From contig CAZZKR010000002.1 in NCBI GenBank assembly GCA_964655015.1, positions 11,211 to 75,210 of the forward strand: 64,000 nt of DNA. The letters are read 5' to 3'. Each line of letters begins with the position of its first letter. Positions within the stretch are counted from its first letter, which is position 1. The stretch comes from an uncultured Nitrososphaeria archaeon. Its GTDB lineage: Archaea; Thermoproteota; Nitrososphaeria_A; Caldarchaeales; Wolframiiraptoraceae. The notes under the pieces were generated by a model. It did no database searches and was not told the origin of the DNA. It saw only the letters and a list, made by a program, of their open reading frames with translations. The position numbers and the translations under genes were made by a program. Below, one piece after another: positions 23,849 to 30,427 of the stretch.

Positions 23849-24472
23849 CTACTTGAACACTTCCCCCGTTTTATCAGCCCACATTACGAGGTCAAGTGCT
23901 TCAGGTCTCATACCCAAATCATTAGCAAGTTGTATAAACTTCTTTTCAAGTTCTAGGTACATTCTTTTTGTTAAATTTTTTGGCACCTCTTTTATAACTC
24001 CAACCTCCTTCATGCCCCTTAGTATATGTCTGTCCAAAATCGCTAAACCTTCATAACCAATGTTTCTCAGAAAATGACTTGCCTCTTTATAACCTAGGCC
24101 CTTTATGTTTTTAACAAGCCATTCCCTTGCCTTGTGAGCATCTGACGGTAAGCTCTTTAACGATTTCAAATACGCCCTAGCAGCGACTATGTATCTAGCT
24201 TTTGACTCGGGGAAGCGAACACCGTTTTCTCTTAAAATATCTGCTACATGATCCTCGTCACCATTAAGTAGCGTCGACTCTCCCTTCATCATCGATATTG
24301 CCGCGTCCGCAGCCCTTGCCCTAGTCTGAGGAGTGCATATGCAGAAGCAAAGCTCCGCGAATACTTCCTCATCGCTTTTTCGTAATGTCTCCTTGAATTC
24401 CTTAAGCCTAGCCTCTATCTCTCCGCGCTTCTCCTCGTAGATCTTCAGATACTTTTTGACGATATCATTCAT
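23849..24472 (-). CDS. ogg: N-glycosylase/DNA lyase (archaeal Ogg2-type 8-oxoguanine glycosylase, HhH-GPD)
   Basis: 207 aa. CFCICTPQTRA, the HhH element IKGLGYKEASHFLRNIGY and the catalytic-region motif ILDRHIL. Confidence 0.75.
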   Translation of the reverse strand: MNDIVKKYLKIYEEKRGEIEARLKEFKETLRKSDEEVFAELCFCICTPQTRARAADAAISMMKGESTLLNGDEDHVADILRENGVRFPESKARYIVAARAYLKSLKSLPSDAHKAREWLVKNIKGLGYKEASHFLRNIGYEGLAILDRHILRGMKEVGVIKEVPKNLTKRMYLELEKKFIQLANDLGMRPEALDLVMWADKTGEVFK

Positions 24473-25959
24473 GCTATTTGTTCTTTCGTCACTTTCGGTA
24501 TATGTAGTTGCCTATCAGAAAGTTCAAAAAATAGTCTAGTTTTGCCCATAGTCTCCACATCGATCTCTCTAACTTTGACCACAATAGGTATGTCCCTGAC
24601 CAAGTAGCCTATGAGTAAGCAATAACGTGGGGGTAAAGATGCCGCTATGGTCTTCACACTTTCAGAATCTATGCGCGAAGTTTTTGCTATTGCCTCTAAA
24701 TCAGCTTCGTTGGTAAAGTTAAAGAGGATTATGTTGTCTGCCTGTCTGTATATCGTCTCGGGTATGGAATCGGGTTGATTCGTCACGAAGATTGGTGATA
24801 AGCCTAAGTGCCTCATTCTTGTCACAATATCATCCCAATACGTATCCCTTAGGTAGAGGTGCGCCTCCTCAGCTACGAGGAATAGTGGTGGTAACCTTCT
24901 TGCCTGCAGCAATTCTGTGAGTTTGCTAAGTAAATATTCAACAACCATCCTCCTCGTCGAGGGTAGCAGGTCCCTAAGGTTAACCACGAGCATTTTACCA
25001 CCAATACACTTGACAACGTCTTCGAAGGATGTTACACACTCATCATAGTCTGTAATTATGCCCGTAGCCTCTATTGCCATAAGTCTACTCATTAATGCCT
25101 CCTTTACAGATTCGTGTAGTTGCGTCTTTTGAATAACTTCTATCAAATCCTTAAGGGTAACGTTACCCTTATTCTTCTTTACAACGTTCCATATTCTGAA
25201 GAATTCTCGGCTACTGCTCGACGGCGTGTCGTAAACATGTATCAATATATCCATAAAAGTTCTGAGACCGACGTCTTCCGTCCTAACTTTGAAGTTCTTA
25301 CCGGGCTCGAGTACTTCATGCCGAAGTGCTATACTGCTTCGACTTCCATCAACTTTTCTATTTAGGTTTACGTACTCTCCGTTAATGTCAAAAACTATAA
25401 CCAGGGCTCCATACTCAACCAATGTGGTAGATATCAACTTCATTATGTGAGACTTTCCAGTTTCTTTCTTCCCGGTTATTATGGTCAATCTGCCGTCGAA
25501 AGATTCTGCATCGACCCAGAAATCTTCCCCTCCTATCGTTCCGATATGTATTTTTCGCTTACCTGTTAACTTCATCACGCTTCTCAACAAATCCGCTCCC
25601 GCAGCGGAGATGTTCGACCTAAACCTCGAAGGAAGCCATGAGCTATTGTACACAATTCTATTCCCTTCCACGATACATCTTATTTTACACCTTACAATTC
25701 TTGCCTCTTTTATCATCATGGTTAGTGATCCTGTACCAAATGGGTCGAAAATGTTTTCATGATTCACGATTTCTAACGAAACTTCTCGTAACATGTCTTC
25801 TAGTATGCCGGGGATATCAGCATAGCTTACATCTATCACCTGAACAAGCATGAACTTGTCCCCCTCATTCACCATGAGATACTGACCTTTCTCGACCACG
25901 ACCTCTGAGGGGAATGCCAATATATCCAGCGTATCTTTTTGCTTAGAAAATATCTTCAT
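24469..25959 (-). CDS. herA: HerA-like FtsK/HerA-superfamily ATPase
   Basis: N-terminal HAS-barrel-like region, Walker A GKKETGKS, FDINGEY, Walker B LFLVAEEAHLY and a VTNQPDSIP sensor region. 496 aa. Its stop overlaps the ogg start by 4 nt. Confidence 0.75.
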   Translation of the reverse strand: MKIFSKQKDTLDILAFPSEVVVEKGQYLMVNEGDKFMLVQVIDVSYADIPGILEDMLREVSLEIVNHENIFDPFGTGSLTMMIKEARIVRCKIRCIVEGNRIVYNSSWLPSRFRSNISAAGADLLRSVMKLTGKRKIHIGTIGGEDFWVDAESFDGRLTIITGKKETGKSHIMKLISTTLVEYGALVIVFDINGEYVNLNRKVDGSRSSIALRHEVLEPGKNFKVRTEDVGLRTFMDILIHVYDTPSSSSREFFRIWNVVKKNKGNVTLKDLIEVIQKTQLHESVKEALMSRLMAIEATGIITDYDECVTSFEDVVKCIGGKMLVVNLRDLLPSTRRMVVEYLLSKLTELLQARRLPPLFLVAEEAHLYLRDTYWDDIVTRMRHLGLSPIFVTNQPDSIPETIYRQADNIILFNFTNEADLEAIAKTSRIDSESVKTIAASLPPRYCLLIGYLVRDIPIVVKVREIDVETMGKTRLFFELSDRQLHIPKVTKEQIA

Positions 25960-25961
25960 GT

Positions 25962-27014
25962 CTAATGACCATCCAGAGGATTGAAAAGACTGCTCCTTAC
26001 ATCTCCTATGCAGAAAGCATCTATGTTAAATTCTTGCTTCAGCAACCTTTGCAACGCTAGCACATCTAACTTGTTAAAGGTGCAGTAATTGTGCGCCAAT
26101 AGCAGAGTTTCTGGGTAGCCGTATATCAAGGCATCGCTGCTGAGAAGGTTACCAATTGTGTACAATACATCCTCTACTTCTTTTTCACTTACGTCAAGCC
26201 TATATGGAAAGAAAGTTCTGGACAGGTGGGATACAAGTATCCTACCGAGCTTGTGGATTTTAGGAGAAGAGCATACAGCATCATTCACATCGATTACGCA
26301 CGGTGGGTCTAGTTCTGGTACCAACGATGTTATCTTAGTTCCCAGATAAGATAGGTGTGTCGATTTCGAAAAGGCAAGCACAACGTTGCCGTTTCGTTCA
26401 GCCTCATTGAGCGTCTCACGAATCAGCTGTAAGGAGTTGTCCGCTGGTCCAGCCGTCAGAGAACCATCGAAGAGTAGTATCGAGTCAGAAAATGTTGATG
26501 CTAACGAACGCTGAAGCCACTTCTCGAGCAAGCTGTTAATACTCCTATGTATTGTCTCAAAGTTTTCGCTAAACGGTTGACCATCCATGAGCTCAGACAT
26601 AAAGGTGAATAAAGATAAGTTATCGTCAAGAGATACGAAAAAGATGAGAGGGCCGATTATCCATGATTCGATGCTTCCAGACCTTTTTCTCCTCACCACA
26701 GACCCCCTTAGAGCGGCGAGATAACCAAAAGGCCCCTCAGCTAGCTTTATGACCGAGGTATCGCACGCGATCACATCGCAGACTTTGCCAGATGGTCTCA
26801 CTTTGTAGGCCTTAACGGAGGCCATCTTGTCCAACTCTAGCATGACATCATGACCAATATGATGTCCGAGCCCATCAATACTAACGACAGGCAAGGTCTT
26901 CCTTAGGTTTTCCATCGAGCCCAGTCCCATCTTAGAAAATGCTTTAAATACCTCTAAGAAGTTCTCAATAAAAGGGGTCTCGGTGCTTATGAGGGTACTC
27001 ATCCGCTTCATCAC
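25962..27014 (-). CDS. nurA: NurA-like nuclease
   Basis: 350 aa. Motifs IACDTSV, ILLFDGSL, AFSKSTH and YGYPETLLLAHNY parallel the NurA motifs (DxS, DGS, SKxS, GYPxxLxxA). Sits directly upstream of herA with a 2-nt gap. Confidence 0.6.
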   Translation of the reverse strand: MMKRMSTLISTETPFIENFLEVFKAFSKMGLGSMENLRKTLPVVSIDGLGHHIGHDVMLELDKMASVKAYKVRPSGKVCDVIACDTSVIKLAEGPFGYLAALRGSVVRRKRSGSIESWIIGPLIFFVSLDDNLSLFTFMSELMDGQPFSENFETIHRSINSLLEKWLQRSLASTFSDSILLFDGSLTAGPADNSLQLIRETLNEAERNGNVVLAFSKSTHLSYLGTKITSLVPELDPPCVIDVNDAVCSSPKIHKLGRILVSHLSRTFFPYRLDVSEKEVEDVLYTIGNLLSSDALIYGYPETLLLAHNYCTFNKLDVLALQRLLKQEFNIDAFCIGDVRSSLFNPLDGH

Positions 27015-27071
27015 TAATAACCTTAAGGATTTATGTGCTTATAAATGTTGCGCAATTTGGGTAATTTGCTC

Positions 27072-27503
27072 ATGTCACAAGAAAGAATAAGAGTCAAGAT
27101 AACGGTAGGAAAGGCGAATGTGGAGATAGAAGCACCCCCTGATCTGTTAGAGAAGTCCATAAGGGACGTTATGGCAGCACTCGGTGTTTCAGAGACGTTA
27201 GAGCCCGAATCTGAAGCTCAAAAGCGCACAAGGCCCGTCGAGACGTCCACATGTAGGGGGTTGATAGAAAGCCTGCTCAAGGAGGGGTGGTTTTCCACAC
27301 CAAGACCATTGTCTGAGGTCGTGGCAGAATTGGCCAGAAGAGGTCATCATTATGACCCGACTGCCGTGGCCCACGTTTTATTGGACATGGTAAGGGAGGG
27401 TGTCCTATCTAGAATAGGCCGGCCCAGAAGGTATCTCTATTCAGCACAACCCACATCAGCGGCGAAGGTGGAAACCGAAGAGAGTGAACCCACCGGGGAG
27501 TAA
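27072..27503 (+). CDS. Small wHTH protein, paralog 1 of a three-member local family
   Basis: N-terminal IRVKITVGKANVEIEAPPDLLEKSI module and C-terminal wHTH (LSEVVAELARRGHHYDPTAVAHVLLDMVREGVLSRIG). Start moved to the ATG at 27072. Divergent from nurA. Confidence 0.5.
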   Translation: MSQERIRVKITVGKANVEIEAPPDLLEKSIRDVMAALGVSETLEPESEAQKRTRPVETSTCRGLIESLLKEGWFSTPRPLSEVVAELARRGHHYDPTAVAHVLLDMVREGVLSRIGRPRRYLYSAQPTSAAKVETEESEPTGE

Positions 27504-27995
27504 CTATTTTTTCTCAACCTTGCCCTCCACAAACTCCTTAATACCTAGCATTGTTATGACGTAGTCTCCCCTATCTAGGCGTCTGATGTAGCCCTTCCGC
27601 AAAAGCAGGCTTAGTTTTCCCGATATCGTCTTCTCGGACTTGGCTATGCTTTTCGCCAGTTCCGAAGCATTTATGGAAGGGGACTCGGCCAGACCCAGTC
27701 CATGCTCAAGGTACCTCTTTATGCACAAAAGCATTATCGCCTCGGAAACTGATAGTGCGTTCAGAGGTTTAAGCAGAAAGACCCCCTCGGTTTGGTTATA
27801 CGCTAGGTAGTCCCTCAATTTTTCGATTAAGCTTTGAAGGTCCACAGAATAGCTTATCTTGCTAGCAAGTGAATAGGAAGGTATCACTTTCTCCATAAAG
27901 GATACTATGCTTCTGTAGACGTCATCAGGCCTCCCTTCAAAATCTGCCCGGACATCTTTATACTGTATTGAAACTTTCATGACTTCCTCGCCCAT
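27504..27995 (-). CDS. Small wHTH protein, paralog 2
   Basis: MKVSIQYKDVRADFEGRPDDVYRSIVSFMEKV N-module and C-terminal wHTH (ASELAKSIAKSEKTISGKLSLLLRKGYIRRLDRGDYV). Confidence 0.5.
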   Translation of the reverse strand: MGEEVMKVSIQYKDVRADFEGRPDDVYRSIVSFMEKVIPSYSLASKISYSVDLQSLIEKLRDYLAYNQTEGVFLLKPLNALSVSEAIMLLCIKRYLEHGLGLAESPSINASELAKSIAKSEKTISGKLSLLLRKGYIRRLDRGDYVITMLGIKEFVEGKVEKK

Positions 27996-27997
27996 GA

Positions 27998-28501
27998 TTA
28001 GACCTCCTCTGTCAACACGTTGATGGCAGATGTATTAAAAACATATCTCCCACCATCAACCTTTATGACGAGACCCGACTTTCTCATCTCACTTAGCCTA
28101 GCCCTGGTAACGCTTTCTTCCAAACCTGTGATTACCGAGACCTCTTTAGGAGAGAGCGCATCGTTCTCCAAAAGCCCAAGCACTTTGCCCACGTATGCGG
28201 CCGCGAGACATATAATTATCTTTCTTTTGGCATCTGCCTGTGTTGAGACAACTATCCTGCCGTTTACTATCTGGGCTTTTCCCGAAAGTAGGGACATGAT
28301 GTGAGAAACATCTACAGCTCCCAGAAACTTCTTTATTATCGAGAGGGATGGATAGAGCTCTGAAAGATATTTGTTAACACTCATCCATACTTCTTCGTAA
28401 TTTCCCTCAAACTCGACGGAAACATCGTCATGCTGTATCCTTACCTTAAGACCTTTCACATTTTGCAAAGTCTTTACCAATATAAATCTCAAGAGATGCA
28501 T
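27998..28501 (-). CDS. Small wHTH protein, paralog 3
   Basis: LKVRIQHDDVSVEFEGNYEEVWMSVNKYLSEL N-module and C-terminal wHTH (PKEVSVITGLEESVTRARLSEMRKSGLVIKVDGGRYV). Starts 3 nt after the gatE stop. Confidence 0.5.
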   Translation of the reverse strand: MHLLRFILVKTLQNVKGLKVRIQHDDVSVEFEGNYEEVWMSVNKYLSELYPSLSIIKKFLGAVDVSHIMSLLSGKAQIVNGRIVVSTQADAKRKIIICLAAAYVGKVLGLLENDALSPKEVSVITGLEESVTRARLSEMRKSGLVIKVDGGRYVFNTSAINVLTEEV

Positions 28502-28504
28502 GCA

Positions 28505-30427
28505 TTAAAATTTATCGCTCTCGGATTTGAGTGCCCGAATTGCCTTTATTAGCATGCTGTTTATGAGTGCCCCATCAACCCTTCCTCTGTAATCTTTCAT
28601 TAGCTTACCCATTAACTTGGCCACGGCCTTCTTTTCATCAGCAAAAATCTCTTGCTTGTGCTCTTCAACGAGCATCTTAATCCTATCTTCTACCTCCGAA
28701 ATCGGAGGAGACCAAAGGCCGAGTTCGTCTATGATTTGATCCACGTTTTGCCCTTTCTGTGCTACGGCTGCTAGGACATCCCTAACAGCCTCCTTCGCCA
28801 CCTTGTTACATGACACGAGTTCAAAGAACCTCATTATGTGCGCTTTGGTTATCTTTTCAACGTTAATCCCCTCCCTCCTTAAGCTTCTGAGCACTTCCGT
28901 TAACGTAGAGGCTACGACGGTAGGAGACACTCCAGTTTTCGAAACAATCTCTTCAAAATCTTCAACCACCTCGCTATCTATAAGGTCGTTTGCAAGTTGC
29001 TTGCTGAGTCCATACTTCTCAACAAGTTGTTGAGCCACAACATCCAAAGTCTTTGGAAGCCTTGCTCTCAGCCGCTCAATAAGTTCTTGTGAAATTACAA
29101 TTGGTGGTATGTCCGTCTCCGGATACATCCTTGCCGAGCCCGGCCTCGGCCTCATGTAAACTGTTGTACCATCGGGTCTTGCTGCTCTAGTTTCTTCGGG
29201 TACTCCATCTAAGGCCTCTGCTGCTCTTTCCTTAATAACCTCTACCGCATCCAATGCTTTGTCCCTTTCCGCTGCCACTATGACCACAGCGTCGTATTCT
29301 CCAGCACCTGTTGCATCTTTCAGAGCTTTAACTTCTTCACTCGTTATTCCGTAGTTGGGGAGCTCATCCGTATGGAATATTCCTTCCACATCGCTCCATG
29401 CCTTCACTCTTCCCGCAATCTCTGCACCAAGCCTTATACCGGGCGACGGTTGTAGACCTAGCAATCCAGCAAACCCCTTCAATACTATTGCATACACGAC
29501 CCCACCCGCTTCAAGTTGTCTTTTGATTATTCTGCTGGAAGTTTTAGAAAATATGTGGGTGACGTCAACGGGTTTTGCACTCCAAACGTCTTCCTTCTTA
29601 ACACCGCGTTTTAACAATTCCTCTTTTATCCGCAAAAGGTGCAGTTGTCGCTTAACCTCGTTTTCCACAACCTTTTGAATGAGCTCAAGTTCTTGGACAC
29701 CTTTTATCTCAATGGGTGCCCCATCCTTAATTGATATGTTCAAGTCTTGCCTGACAGTCCCTATGCCTCGCTTAACTTTGCCCGTTGCCCTTAACATTCT
29801 TCCTATGGCGTAAGCTACTTCCATCGCTTCTTCAGGTGATTCGATGACTGGCTCTGTCGAAATTTCTATTAGTGGTATGCCGAGCCTTGATAGGTCATAA
29901 TGGACCTCATCTTTTCTAACCTCTATTATTCTAGCCGCATCTTCCTCGAGGGTTATCATCTGTATGGGTATGGTTTTGTTCTTTATTTTTATTTCCCCTC
30001 CTATCCCGATTATACATGTGCGTTGGAATCCTGTCGTGTTAGAACCGTCTATGACTATCTTGCGCATTACGTGAACCTCATCAACTGGTTTGGAGTCAAG
30101 TAAAAGAGCAACCATGAGGGCGACTTCAAGAGCCTCGGGATTCAAGTTATGCGGAGGTTCCTCATCCATCTCGACCAAGCAAACATTCTTGAGGTTTGCA
30201 TGATAGACTATTGTCCTCTGCTTTTTTGATTCAAAGATTGCCGCCGCGTCTACTGTACCAAGTTCACTCTGAACTTCCCTTAATTTTCTGACAAAAGTTA
30301 TGGTTTCACCGCCCTCGACCTCTTCTGTCGGACAATCACAGAACAATTTCCTCTTTGTGTCTAACTGTCTGTGTATCTCCAGACCGACTTTCAACTTTAT
30401 GCTGGAATAATCCTCCATAACTACCAC
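28505..30427 (-). CDS. gatE: Glutamyl-tRNA(Gln) amidotransferase subunit E
   Basis: KVGLEIHRQL...KLFCDCP N-terminus, an inserted AspRS-like domain and a YqeY-like tail. 640 aa. Overlaps gatD. Confidence 0.93.
   Translation of the reverse strand: MVVMEDYSSIKLKVGLEIHRQLDTKRKLFCDCPTEEVEGGETITFVRKLREVQSELGTVDAAAIFESKKQRTIVYHANLKNVCLVEMDEEPPHNLNPEALEVALMVALLLDSKPVDEVHVMRKIVIDGSNTTGFQRTCIIGIGGEIKIKNKTIPIQMITLEEDAARIIEVRKDEVHYDLSRLGIPLIEISTEPVIESPEEAMEVAYAIGRMLRATGKVKRGIGTVRQDLNISIKDGAPIEIKGVQELELIQKVVENEVKRQLHLLRIKEELLKRGVKKEDVWSAKPVDVTHIFSKTSSRIIKRQLEAGGVVYAIVLKGFAGLLGLQPSPGIRLGAEIAGRVKAWSDVEGIFHTDELPNYGITSEEVKALKDATGAGEYDAVVIVAAERDKALDAVEVIKERAAEALDGVPEETRAARPDGTTVYMRPRPGSARMYPETDIPPIVISQELIERLRARLPKTLDVVAQQLVEKYGLSKQLANDLIDSEVVEDFEEIVSKTGVSPTVVASTLTEVLRSLRREGINVEKITKAHIMRFFELVSCNKVAKEAVRDVLAAVAQKGQNVDQIIDELGLWSPPISEVEDRIKMLVEEHKQEIFADEKKAVAKLMGKLMKDYRGRVDGALINSMLIKAIRALKSESDKF

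Follow-up and report, generated by a model that had tools for sequence, protein, structure and literature searches.

The locus and its genes

In the archaeal DNA analysed here, a stretch of 64,000 nucleotides (hereafter the window) from an uncultured Nitrososphaeria archaeon (GenBank assembly GCA_964655015.1, contig CAZZKR010000002.1, positions 11,211 to 75,210 of the forward strand), three small open reading frames (ORFs), which we call ORF1, ORF2 and ORF3, lie between the nurA-herA pair and the gatD-gatE operon. Each encodes a protein that joins a short N-terminal module (N-module) to a C-terminal winged helix-turn-helix (wHTH) domain. HerA-NurA is the DNA-end resection motor of Archaea, and to our knowledge neither its regulation nor its partners are known outside the Mre11-Rad50 operons of model crenarchaea and euryarchaea. 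Sequence comparison indicates that the trio belongs to an uncharacterised, vertically conserved winged-helix family with a new N-terminal module, and that ORF1 almost certainly has a functional tie to nurA-herA by way of a conserved operator-like site. Among genome records the closest are those of Candidatus Terraquivivens (Wolframiiraptoraceae, Caldarchaeales, formerly Aigarchaeota), and the counterpart of ORF1 in the T. yellowstonensis locus L004 shares 92% identity with it. The assembly from which the window comes (1.17 Mb, 94% complete) has ORF1, ORF2 and ORF3 as its only members of the family, at one locus. The genes are as follows.

24469 to 25959, minus strand: herA, 3' of nurA in one operon (PF01935, 55.4 bits against a cut-off of 23.2)
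25962 to 27014, minus strand: nurA, the divergent partner of ORF1 (PF09376, 31.2 bits against a cut-off of 21), with a genus-conserved start at ATG 27002
27045 to 27503, plus strand: ORF1, a two-module protein, called as 152 amino acids; probable true start ATG 27072, giving 143 amino acids
27504 to 27995, minus strand: ORF2, 163 amino acids, with an N-module, a helical and hairpin middle part and a winged helix of Csa3/ArsR/MarR type (isoelectric point, pI, 9.7)
27995/27998, minus strand: junction sequence from which ORF2 is taken to be translationally coupled to ORF3
27998 to 28501, minus strand: ORF3, a paralog of ORF2, 167 amino acids; probable start TTG 28468 or GTG 28459, giving 153 to 156 amino acids
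28505 to 31770, minus strand: the gatD-gatE operon, immediately upstream of ORF3-ORF2 (ORF calls)

The ORF calls bear out the three small genes that the original prediction, a model's reading of the letters, had placed between 27045 and 28501, and the translations contain both the N-terminal peptides that it quoted and the C-terminal wings of the form G(V/Y/L)(L/I)xR/K...RY/DY. Its spacings likewise agree with the sequence: the gatE stop codon (28505-28507) is separated by 3 nt from the first ATG of ORF3 at 28501, the ORF3 stop is followed after 2 nt by the ORF2 start with a GGAGGT Shine-Dalgarno-like motif inside the end of ORF3, and the ORF1 stop (27501-27503) abuts the ORF2 stop (27504-27506) in convergent orientation with zero spacer (27503/27504). 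A T6 run follows the ORF1 stop and lies inside the end of ORF2. The nurA and herA genes are 2 nt apart, and with both products above their Pfam cut-offs they are identified as the NurA-HerA end-resection pair.

Comparison with related loci moves several start codons. ORF1 almost certainly begins at ATG 27072, because ATG 27045 falls inside the TATA box and the 143-residue form begins with MSQE like its orthologs. For nurA the start kept within the genus is ATG 27002, and the intergenic region between nurA and ORF1 therefore measures 69 bp; the divergence of the two genes and the TATA sequence between them stand as predicted, while the proposed gap of about 57 bp is too short. A start of ORF3 at TTG 28468 or GTG 28459 is probably to be preferred to ATG 28501, because the orthologs have 153-156 residues and the N-terminal extension is not conserved outside the genus.

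A dyad-symmetric motif between nurA and ORF1

The intergenic region carries two features that are conserved far beyond the genus.

27039 to 27046, no strand: TATA box TTATAAAT, apparently common to the divergent nurA and ORF1 units, its position conserved in 78 of 78 loci
27049 to 27072, no strand: operator-like array TGCGCA-ATT-TGGGTA-ATT-TGCTCA, in which three TGNNNA hexamers recur every 9 bp, set between the TATA box and the start codon of ORF1

The motif was defined on an alignment of the 160 bp upstream of ORF1 orthologs from 78 loci, which comprise 55 unique sequences. The TATA box is followed by exactly one base and then by TTGYNCA with identical spacing in every one of these loci, and 3' of this element further TGNNCA hexamers recur with a 9-bp period. 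An inverted repeat of 6-3-6 form (TGNNCA-N3-TGNNCA, at most one mismatch) is present in 34 of the 55 unique sequences (62%), as against 5.6% of shuffles, and its register is constant. The central dinucleotides of the two hexamers covary, with the pairs TGCTCA/TGAGCA, TGTGCA/TGCACA, TGAACA/TGTTCA and TGTACA/TGTACA, and such lineage-varying yet complementary dinucleotides read as the signature of a dyad-symmetric protein-binding site. The dyad is found 20.9 times per kb within the 120-bp promoter and 0.028 times per kb over the other 988 kb of the loci, a difference of about 740-fold. The motif also occurs in four further loci (L087-L089 and L096). The sequence feature by which an autoregulated local repressor would be recognised, a conserved dyad-symmetric site in the shared promoter, is thus present.

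Within the 1.17-Mb genome, the gap between nurA and ORF1 is the sole place where the full three-hexamer array occurs, and relaxing the pattern adds a single match, which is unrelated. For the generic dyad there is no genome-wide enrichment (13 sites, or 26 when both strands are counted, against about 35 expected on the both-strand count), and the few perfect dyads elsewhere in the genome all lie within coding regions; the genome-wide motif search gave no evidence of a wider regulon.

In Bathyarchaeia (L026-L082) and in L087-L089 a second TTGYTCAA copy stands at or just before the nurA start codon, about 20-40 nt to the nurA side of the TATA box, and this copy is absent in Terraquivivens. The bathyarchaeial copy lies beside a repeated TCACCAA, possibly a Shine-Dalgarno region.

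Conservation of the neighbourhood

The gene context of ORF1 was studied in the best 80 loci of 451 species that have an ORF1 relative (one genome per species). Adjacency to nurA was counted over the 74 of these 80 loci with at least 1.5 kb of upstream sequence, which come from Caldarchaeales and many Bathyarchaeia. In all 74 the gene immediately upstream on the opposite strand is nurA, followed by herA, and the synteny is thus strict. The same divergent nurA-herA/ORF1 pair is found in L087-L089, which represent two other families of the phylum, and in L096 from another Caldarchaeales genus. In a survey of 401 genomes of the phylum, ORF1 matches were obtained in 135; all but one of the sampled Caldarchaeales genomes match, and all of these matches are strong. 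Two distant lineages have a different arrangement: in L092 four family genes are followed by co-directional NurA (71 bits) and HerA (51 bits) genes, and in L094 NurA-HerA come after gatD-gatE and two family genes, all on one strand. The original prediction had proposed neighbourhood profiling to learn whether homologues go with nurA-herA or with gatDE, and such profiling finds both flanks conserved across classes.

Further family members were met in other settings. In genome G116 (L091 4816-7655) an ORF1-like and an ORF2/3-like gene immediately precede a 152-aa ORF and the gene of a RecJ/GAN-like DHH-CID/DHHA1 protein, which is another DNA-end nuclease context, without nurA-herA. In L094 (4932-6003) four tandem winged-helix genes of 83-91 aa stand, in opposite orientation, between the gatDE-linked cassette and NurA-HerA, and their products match the ORF2/3 profile weakly, in the wHTH part. 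The literature searched contained no description of the family or of this gene neighbourhood, and a 2026 review of NurA, in the part available to us, treats only herA, mre11 and rad50 as genomic neighbours (PMC13748450).

Domain structure and family assignment

The two modules of ORF1, numbered on the 152-aa frame, are placed as follows.

27087 to 27179, plus strand: N-module of ORF1, residues 15-45 (AlphaFold2 (AF2) model, hhalign, MAFFT)
27252 to 27446, plus strand: winged helix-turn-helix of ORF1, residues 70-134 (AF2 model; pI 9.6)

In the AF2 model of ORF1 the N-module consists of two strands (residues 15-21 and 24-30) that form a beta-hairpin and of a helix (35-45), with a predicted local distance difference test score (pLDDT) of 72-81; residues 49-65 make a disordered acidic linker, and the wHTH of residues 70-134 has a pLDDT of about 94. 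ORF3 (mean pLDDT 79) is modelled with a hairpin at 18-33, helices at 35-49, 53-59 and 65-72, a second hairpin at 76-85 and a wHTH at 91-155 with a pLDDT of about 90. The N-modules are acidic and the winged helices basic (pI 9.6 for ORF1, 9.7 for ORF2 and 8.1 for ORF3). Assignment to the wHTH superfamily at the level of the fold follows from the AF2 models, from these basic domains and from the top Foldseek matches, all of which are wHTH. Among 254 ORF1 homologs the identity between classes is about 45%, and the residues invariant between classes belong to the HTH helices and the wing (E95, G100, Y103, D104, T106, A107, H110, L112, D114, R123, G125, Y130 and Y132).

No search went beyond this generic fold. 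Foldseek on the AF2 models of ORF1 and ORF3 returned nothing other than generic winged helices, with E-values above 1e-3, and left the N-module unplaced; the best matches of ORF1 are isolated winged helices, namely that of HOP2 (TM-score, TMt, 0.83), BlaI, Fur and PadR, and those of ORF3 are generic wHTH regulators and the MarR and FNR/CRP C-terminal domains. Sequence profiles of the PDB gave no significant match for either family. In Pfam, Penicillinase_R (PF03965) reached 19.2 bits for ORF1, under the gathering cut-off of 22.6; it is the sole Pfam family that recurs for ORF1 orthologs, at sub-threshold level in 20 of 47 with a best E-value of 1.2e-4. All Pfam matches of ORF2 and ORF3 are below the gathering cut-offs (MarR for ORF2, 19.5 against 24.6 bits; HTH_24 for ORF3, 17.2 against 21.9; TrmB and others lower). 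TIGR01884 (Csa3) covers only the wHTH part of ORF2/3, with 18.2 bits against a cut-off of 60.2. The NCBIfam and PADLOC matches of ORF2/3 to Csa3, CasR and ArsR are weak, and those in PADLOC, to Csa3/CasR/CARF3, are at the level of the wHTH and go down to an E-value of 9e-7. A match of the ORF3 N-terminus to arcadin-2 (NF053561; E 0.012, 15.3 bits against a cut-off of 290) was seen in 1 of 20 family members and was dismissed as a chance match.

A profile of the N-module alone, run against 1.84 billion representative proteins, gave 95 matches, nearly all of them proteins of 55-180 aa in which the module is N-terminal. Long repetitive proteins that also matched (P0169, P0178, P0197, P0244 and P0249, 0.8 to 2.4 thousand residues) align in many short partial stretches; P0169 was inspected, and they look like compositional or repeat artefacts. 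By these searches the N-module appears restricted to this family, and the libraries consulted do not describe it. The original prediction could place the N-module in no family and asked for profile and structure searches: with Pfam, NCBIfam, PDB sequence and fold searches all below threshold, the module indeed belongs to no recognised family, and the proteins are assigned to no known regulator family, only to the generic winged helix.

Relationship among the three proteins

ORF2 and ORF3 are, from sequence, clearly full-length paralogs: BLASTP aligns them over their full length at 3e-12, and their family profiles match by hhalign with a probability of 99.5% (E 7e-23). In a maximum-likelihood tree the ORF2/ORF3 duplication predates the split of Caldarchaeaceae and Wolframiiraptoraceae, and the single strong copy of Bathyarchaeia clusters with ORF3.

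The position of ORF1 is different. BLASTP shows no signal between it and ORF2 or ORF3, and hidden Markov models (HMMs) of the ORF2/3 N-module, run against the 12,164 open frames of the own genome, link ORF2 and ORF3 and do not retrieve ORF1. Profile-profile comparison of small family alignments aligns the N-terminal 39-42 columns of ORF1 with those of the two others (probability 77% and 51%), and the ORF1 profile against a 55-member ORF2/3 alignment from related loci reaches 85% with a score of 41.0; over these N-module comparisons the E-values range from 2e-5 to 6e-6, the latter with the 55-member alignment. As controls for the score of 41.0, 100 column shuffles had a mean of 12.8 (standard deviation 2.6, maximum 23.2), block shuffles stayed at or below 32.5, and the reversed alignment gave 14.2. 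MAFFT aligned 48 N-modules from all subfamilies with zero internal gaps, and an intermediate protein from a distant genome (L092 6786-7223) matches the HMMs of both families. On this evidence we take the N-module common to ORF1, ORF2 and ORF3 to be real, and the N-terminal similarity that had been proposed across all three persists in the 48-sequence alignment and in the profile comparison. No alignment at sequence level was obtained between the winged helix of ORF1 and those of ORF2/3, and these domains are not detectably related beyond the fold. The description of the trio as three paralogs therefore needs to be divided: the shared two-module architecture holds, and equal paralogy does not, ORF1 having only the N-module in common with ORF2 and ORF3.

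The ORF2/ORF3 cassette and gatDE

Of the 78 loci whose downstream sequence is long enough, about half have an ORF2/3-family gene that converges on ORF1 (40 by tblastn, 42 in a later HMM scan). In 25 of these 42 loci (L004-L083) the two convergent genes abut at their 3' ends or overlap there (0 to -31 nt), and the ORF1 and ORF2 transcripts must therefore either overlap or end at a common terminator. Bathyarchaeia have a weaker family member and an ORF1-like paralog ahead of the strong copy, and with them four family genes per genome. When 21 genomes without the cassette at the ORF1 locus were searched, 20 were found to have it elsewhere, in 16 of the 20 cases co-directionally behind gatD-gatE with other paralogs filling the gap. 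Over all 62 cassette loci, gatE lies co-directionally upstream within 3 kb in 36, and these gatE-linked cassettes come from Bathyarchaeia, Wolframiiraptoraceae, other families of the phylum and two lineages that are unplaced. The exceptions are Caldarchaeaceae and Calditenuaceae, in which the cassette stays with ORF1 and nurA-herA and no gatDE is nearby; in Caldarchaeaceae the ORF3-ORF2 pair has its own promoter. It follows that nurA-herA/ORF1 and gatDE/cassette are two conserved units that meet in this genus.

Co-transcription of ORF3-ORF2 with gatDE, as had been suggested, is no more than plausible. Two TATA-like boxes are seen at 28477-28515, in or beside the 40-nt spacer between gatE and ORF3: one, ATAAATTTTAAT, lies across the gatE stop, and the other, TTTATAT, precedes GTG 28459 by about 26 nt. 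Instead of depending on read-through from gatE, ORF3-ORF2 may thus be transcribed from a promoter of its own, with a leaderless 153-aa product. A subgroup of Bathyarchaeia (L123-L129 and L136) has a conserved gatD promoter, TTGTTGTGCGATAAAGTTAAAG, in which TTGTGCG, on the upstream side of the TATA box, resembles the ORF1 half-site; to call it such was judged an over-interpretation, and it may be a coincidence or a TFB recognition element (BRE; TFB, transcription factor B).

Two proteins of about 370 aa, P0204 (L142 2107-3237) and P0242 (L143 3559-4689), are real fusions of an N-terminal domain of about 195 aa with a complete ORF2/3-like unit, and the N-terminal domain has a PD...E-x-K nuclease-like motif (PDGVI...YELK). 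The L142 fusion gene is preceded by a small nuclease-like ORF and an ORF2/3-like protein without the N-module, and is followed by a helicase of XPB/Rad25 type (ResIII and ERCC3_RAD25_C).

A proposed role for ORF1 and the alternatives

On balance we favour, with a confidence only a little above even, the view that ORF1 is dedicated to the regulation of the divergent nurA-herA(-ogg) operon and of its own expression, most likely as repressor and autorepressor. ORF1 would be a small dimeric or oligomeric DNA-binding protein, in which the N-module oligomerises and the C-terminal winged helix reads DNA. We infer that it binds the array of TGNNCA hexamers, which with its 9-bp period and 6-3-6 palindromes starts two bases past the shared TATA box, and the invariance of the HTH helices and wing of ORF1 fits the invariant TG/CA of such a target. 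In archaeal promoters transcription usually starts some 26 nt downstream of the TATA box, and the start sites can be placed on this rule. ATG 27072 of ORF1 is about 26-29 nt from the centre of the TATA box at 27039-27046, which would bring the start site of ORF1 to within a few bases of that ATG and make its mRNA leaderless; ATG 27002 of nurA is about 40 nt away on the other side, and from the same TATA box its start site would fall about 14 nt before the ATG, a geometry that also fits Bathyarchaeia. The array at 27049-27072 would then span from about -22 to the ORF1 start, and for the nurA direction it would occupy the side where TFB would contact the BRE, so that one bound ORF1 oligomer could shut both transcription units. 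A divergent layout with an operator between TATA box and start site is the classical arrangement of archaeal repressors. ORF2 and ORF3 are, on the same proposal, old paralogs and probably DNA binders, which may form mixed oligomers with ORF1 through the N-module.

Several observations weigh against a purely local repressor. In the own genus the palindrome is degenerate, with two mismatches per pair, and the first hexamer, beside the TATA box, could in part function as a BRE for nurA transcription instead of as an operator. A related operator was sought upstream of gatD and of ORF3 and none was found, and the conserved gatDE link of ORF2/3 is left unexplained by a model in which ORF1 represses. 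The identity of about 45% between classes, the universal presence, the several paralogs and the co-directional operon of L092 are more in keeping with a structural partner than with an ordinary local regulator. Such a partner could be a physical accessory subunit of the HerA-NurA end-resection machine, with ORF1 (possibly together with ORF2 and ORF3) as a DNA-recognising loader or adaptor acting through the N-module and with autoregulation secondary, which we consider unlikely, though it accounts for the adjacency to nurA-herA in every locus examined, for the four family genes that run co-directionally with NurA-HerA in L092 and for a conservation of ORF1 that is unusually high for a local regulator. 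Only 6 of 41 Caldarchaeales genomes have a Rad50 zinc hook (PF04423) that scores above cut-off, none of them from Terraquivivens, and a motif search of the own assembly (94% complete) found no Rad50-hook or Mre11 candidate; this scarcity of zinc hooks in the order leaves room for another DNA-recognition factor. The fusion of an ORF2/3-like protein to a PD-(D/E)xK-like domain beside an XPB-type helicase in L142 points the same way, as does, weakly, the HOP2 recombination-factor winged helix as best Foldseek match of the ORF1 wHTH. Yet a palindromic, sequence-specific motif at its own promoter suits a transcription factor and not an end-binding factor, the ORF2/3 cassette is often far from nurA-herA, and some ORF1-bearing lineages have Rad50 as well (the same 6 of 41 genomes of the order). 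The stronger idea that ORF1 replaces Mre11-Rad50 is weakened by these hooks and by Nitrosocaldus, which has been reported to encode both Mre11 and Rad50 (PMC5797428). A bolder version, less likely again, has ORF1, ORF2, ORF3 and the further paralogs of Bathyarchaeia assemble through their N-modules into a hetero-oligomeric DNA-binding complex that would be a hitherto unrecognised core component, a loader or specificity factor, of HerA-NurA in Nitrososphaeria and Bathyarchaeia, with the hexamer array autoregulatory and with the placement behind gatDE tying dosage to a constitutive housekeeping operon.

The link to gatDE may also be taken at face value, as meaning that ORF2 and ORF3 serve that operon in regulation or in Gln-tRNA formation and that their closeness to ORF1 and nurA-herA is a relic of tandem duplication. 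The 36 of 62 loci with gatD-gatE co-directionally upstream, among them 16 of the 20 genomes whose cassette is unlinked from ORF1, and the tight spacing of 3 nt and 2 nt in the window agree with this, but Caldarchaeaceae and Calditenuaceae keep the cassette beside ORF1 and nurA-herA with no gatDE nearby, the search for a conserved operator upstream of gatD was negative, and the basic winged helices are most like those of DNA-binding regulators. We know of no GatDE partner that resembles ORF2 or ORF3, and we regard this role as improbable. Equally improbable in our view is that the three are ordinary, functionally unrelated winged-helix regulators or nucleoid proteins kept by inherited gene order. 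Their similarity is to generic wHTH domains only, the N-module has no assigned function, and these small genomes have a compact and stable gene order. Without selection, however, gene order seldom persists between classes, and against this reading stand the divergent pair kept in 74 of 74 loci, the promoter motif conserved with covariation and the 3' ends of the convergent genes, which in 25 of 42 loci abut or overlap. The original prediction had itself leaned towards a set of regulators or adaptors of an accessory system, here taken as one of mobile or defence type, on the ground that triplication at one locus is typical of such sets. HerA-type ATPases occur in defence systems, the HerA of this locus matches the PADLOC HerA and mad8 models generically, and the rare fusion of an ORF2/3-like unit to a nuclease-like domain lies in an island-like context. 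However, neither ORF1 nor NurA matches any PADLOC model, ORF2/3 match at the wHTH level only, and the locus is single-copy, vertically conserved across classes, set beside core genes (ogg, gatDE) and part of a streamlined 1.17-Mb genome; orthologs occur in nearly all Caldarchaeales and Bathyarchaeia examined, and this phyletic pattern brings the accessory reading close to refuted. It is in our view very improbable indeed.

Significance and comparison with known systems

The locus gives the regulation and partners of HerA-NurA a named candidate and a precise DNA site, conserved in Caldarchaeales, Bathyarchaeia and two further families. It also defines a new N-terminal module of about 35 residues, which marks a family of two to four paralogs per genome, and it reveals a second conserved link of that family, to the gatDE operon.

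Among known systems, the Sulfolobales herA-mre11-rad50-nurA operon has the same pair of NurA nuclease and HerA ATPase, whereas nurA-herA is here without mre11-rad50, coupled to ogg and paired with a divergent wHTH gene. The wHTH domains of ORF2 and ORF3 have their best weak matches in Csa3/CasR, ArsR/SmtB and MarR, but the two proteins have no CARF domain, no ArsR metal site and no helical dimer interface of MarR type, and their hairpin-helix N-module and middle part are foreign to those families. The role proposed for ORF1 is reminiscent of the BlaI/MecI/CopY repressors (PF03965), small dimeric winged-helix proteins on dyad operators that overlap a divergent promoter. In ORF1 the order is reversed, with a proposed oligomerisation module at the N-terminus and the wHTH at the C-terminus; the N-module is unrelated, and there is no sensor protease of BlaR/MecR type among its neighbours (nurA-herA, gatDE). 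In archaeal repressors of the LrpA, MDR1, Phr and TrmB type, a dimer on a palindrome between TATA box and start site blocks the recruitment of RNA polymerase, often with autoregulation. ORF1 would resemble them in acting downstream of the TATA box, while its protein family and its dimerisation domain differ from theirs.

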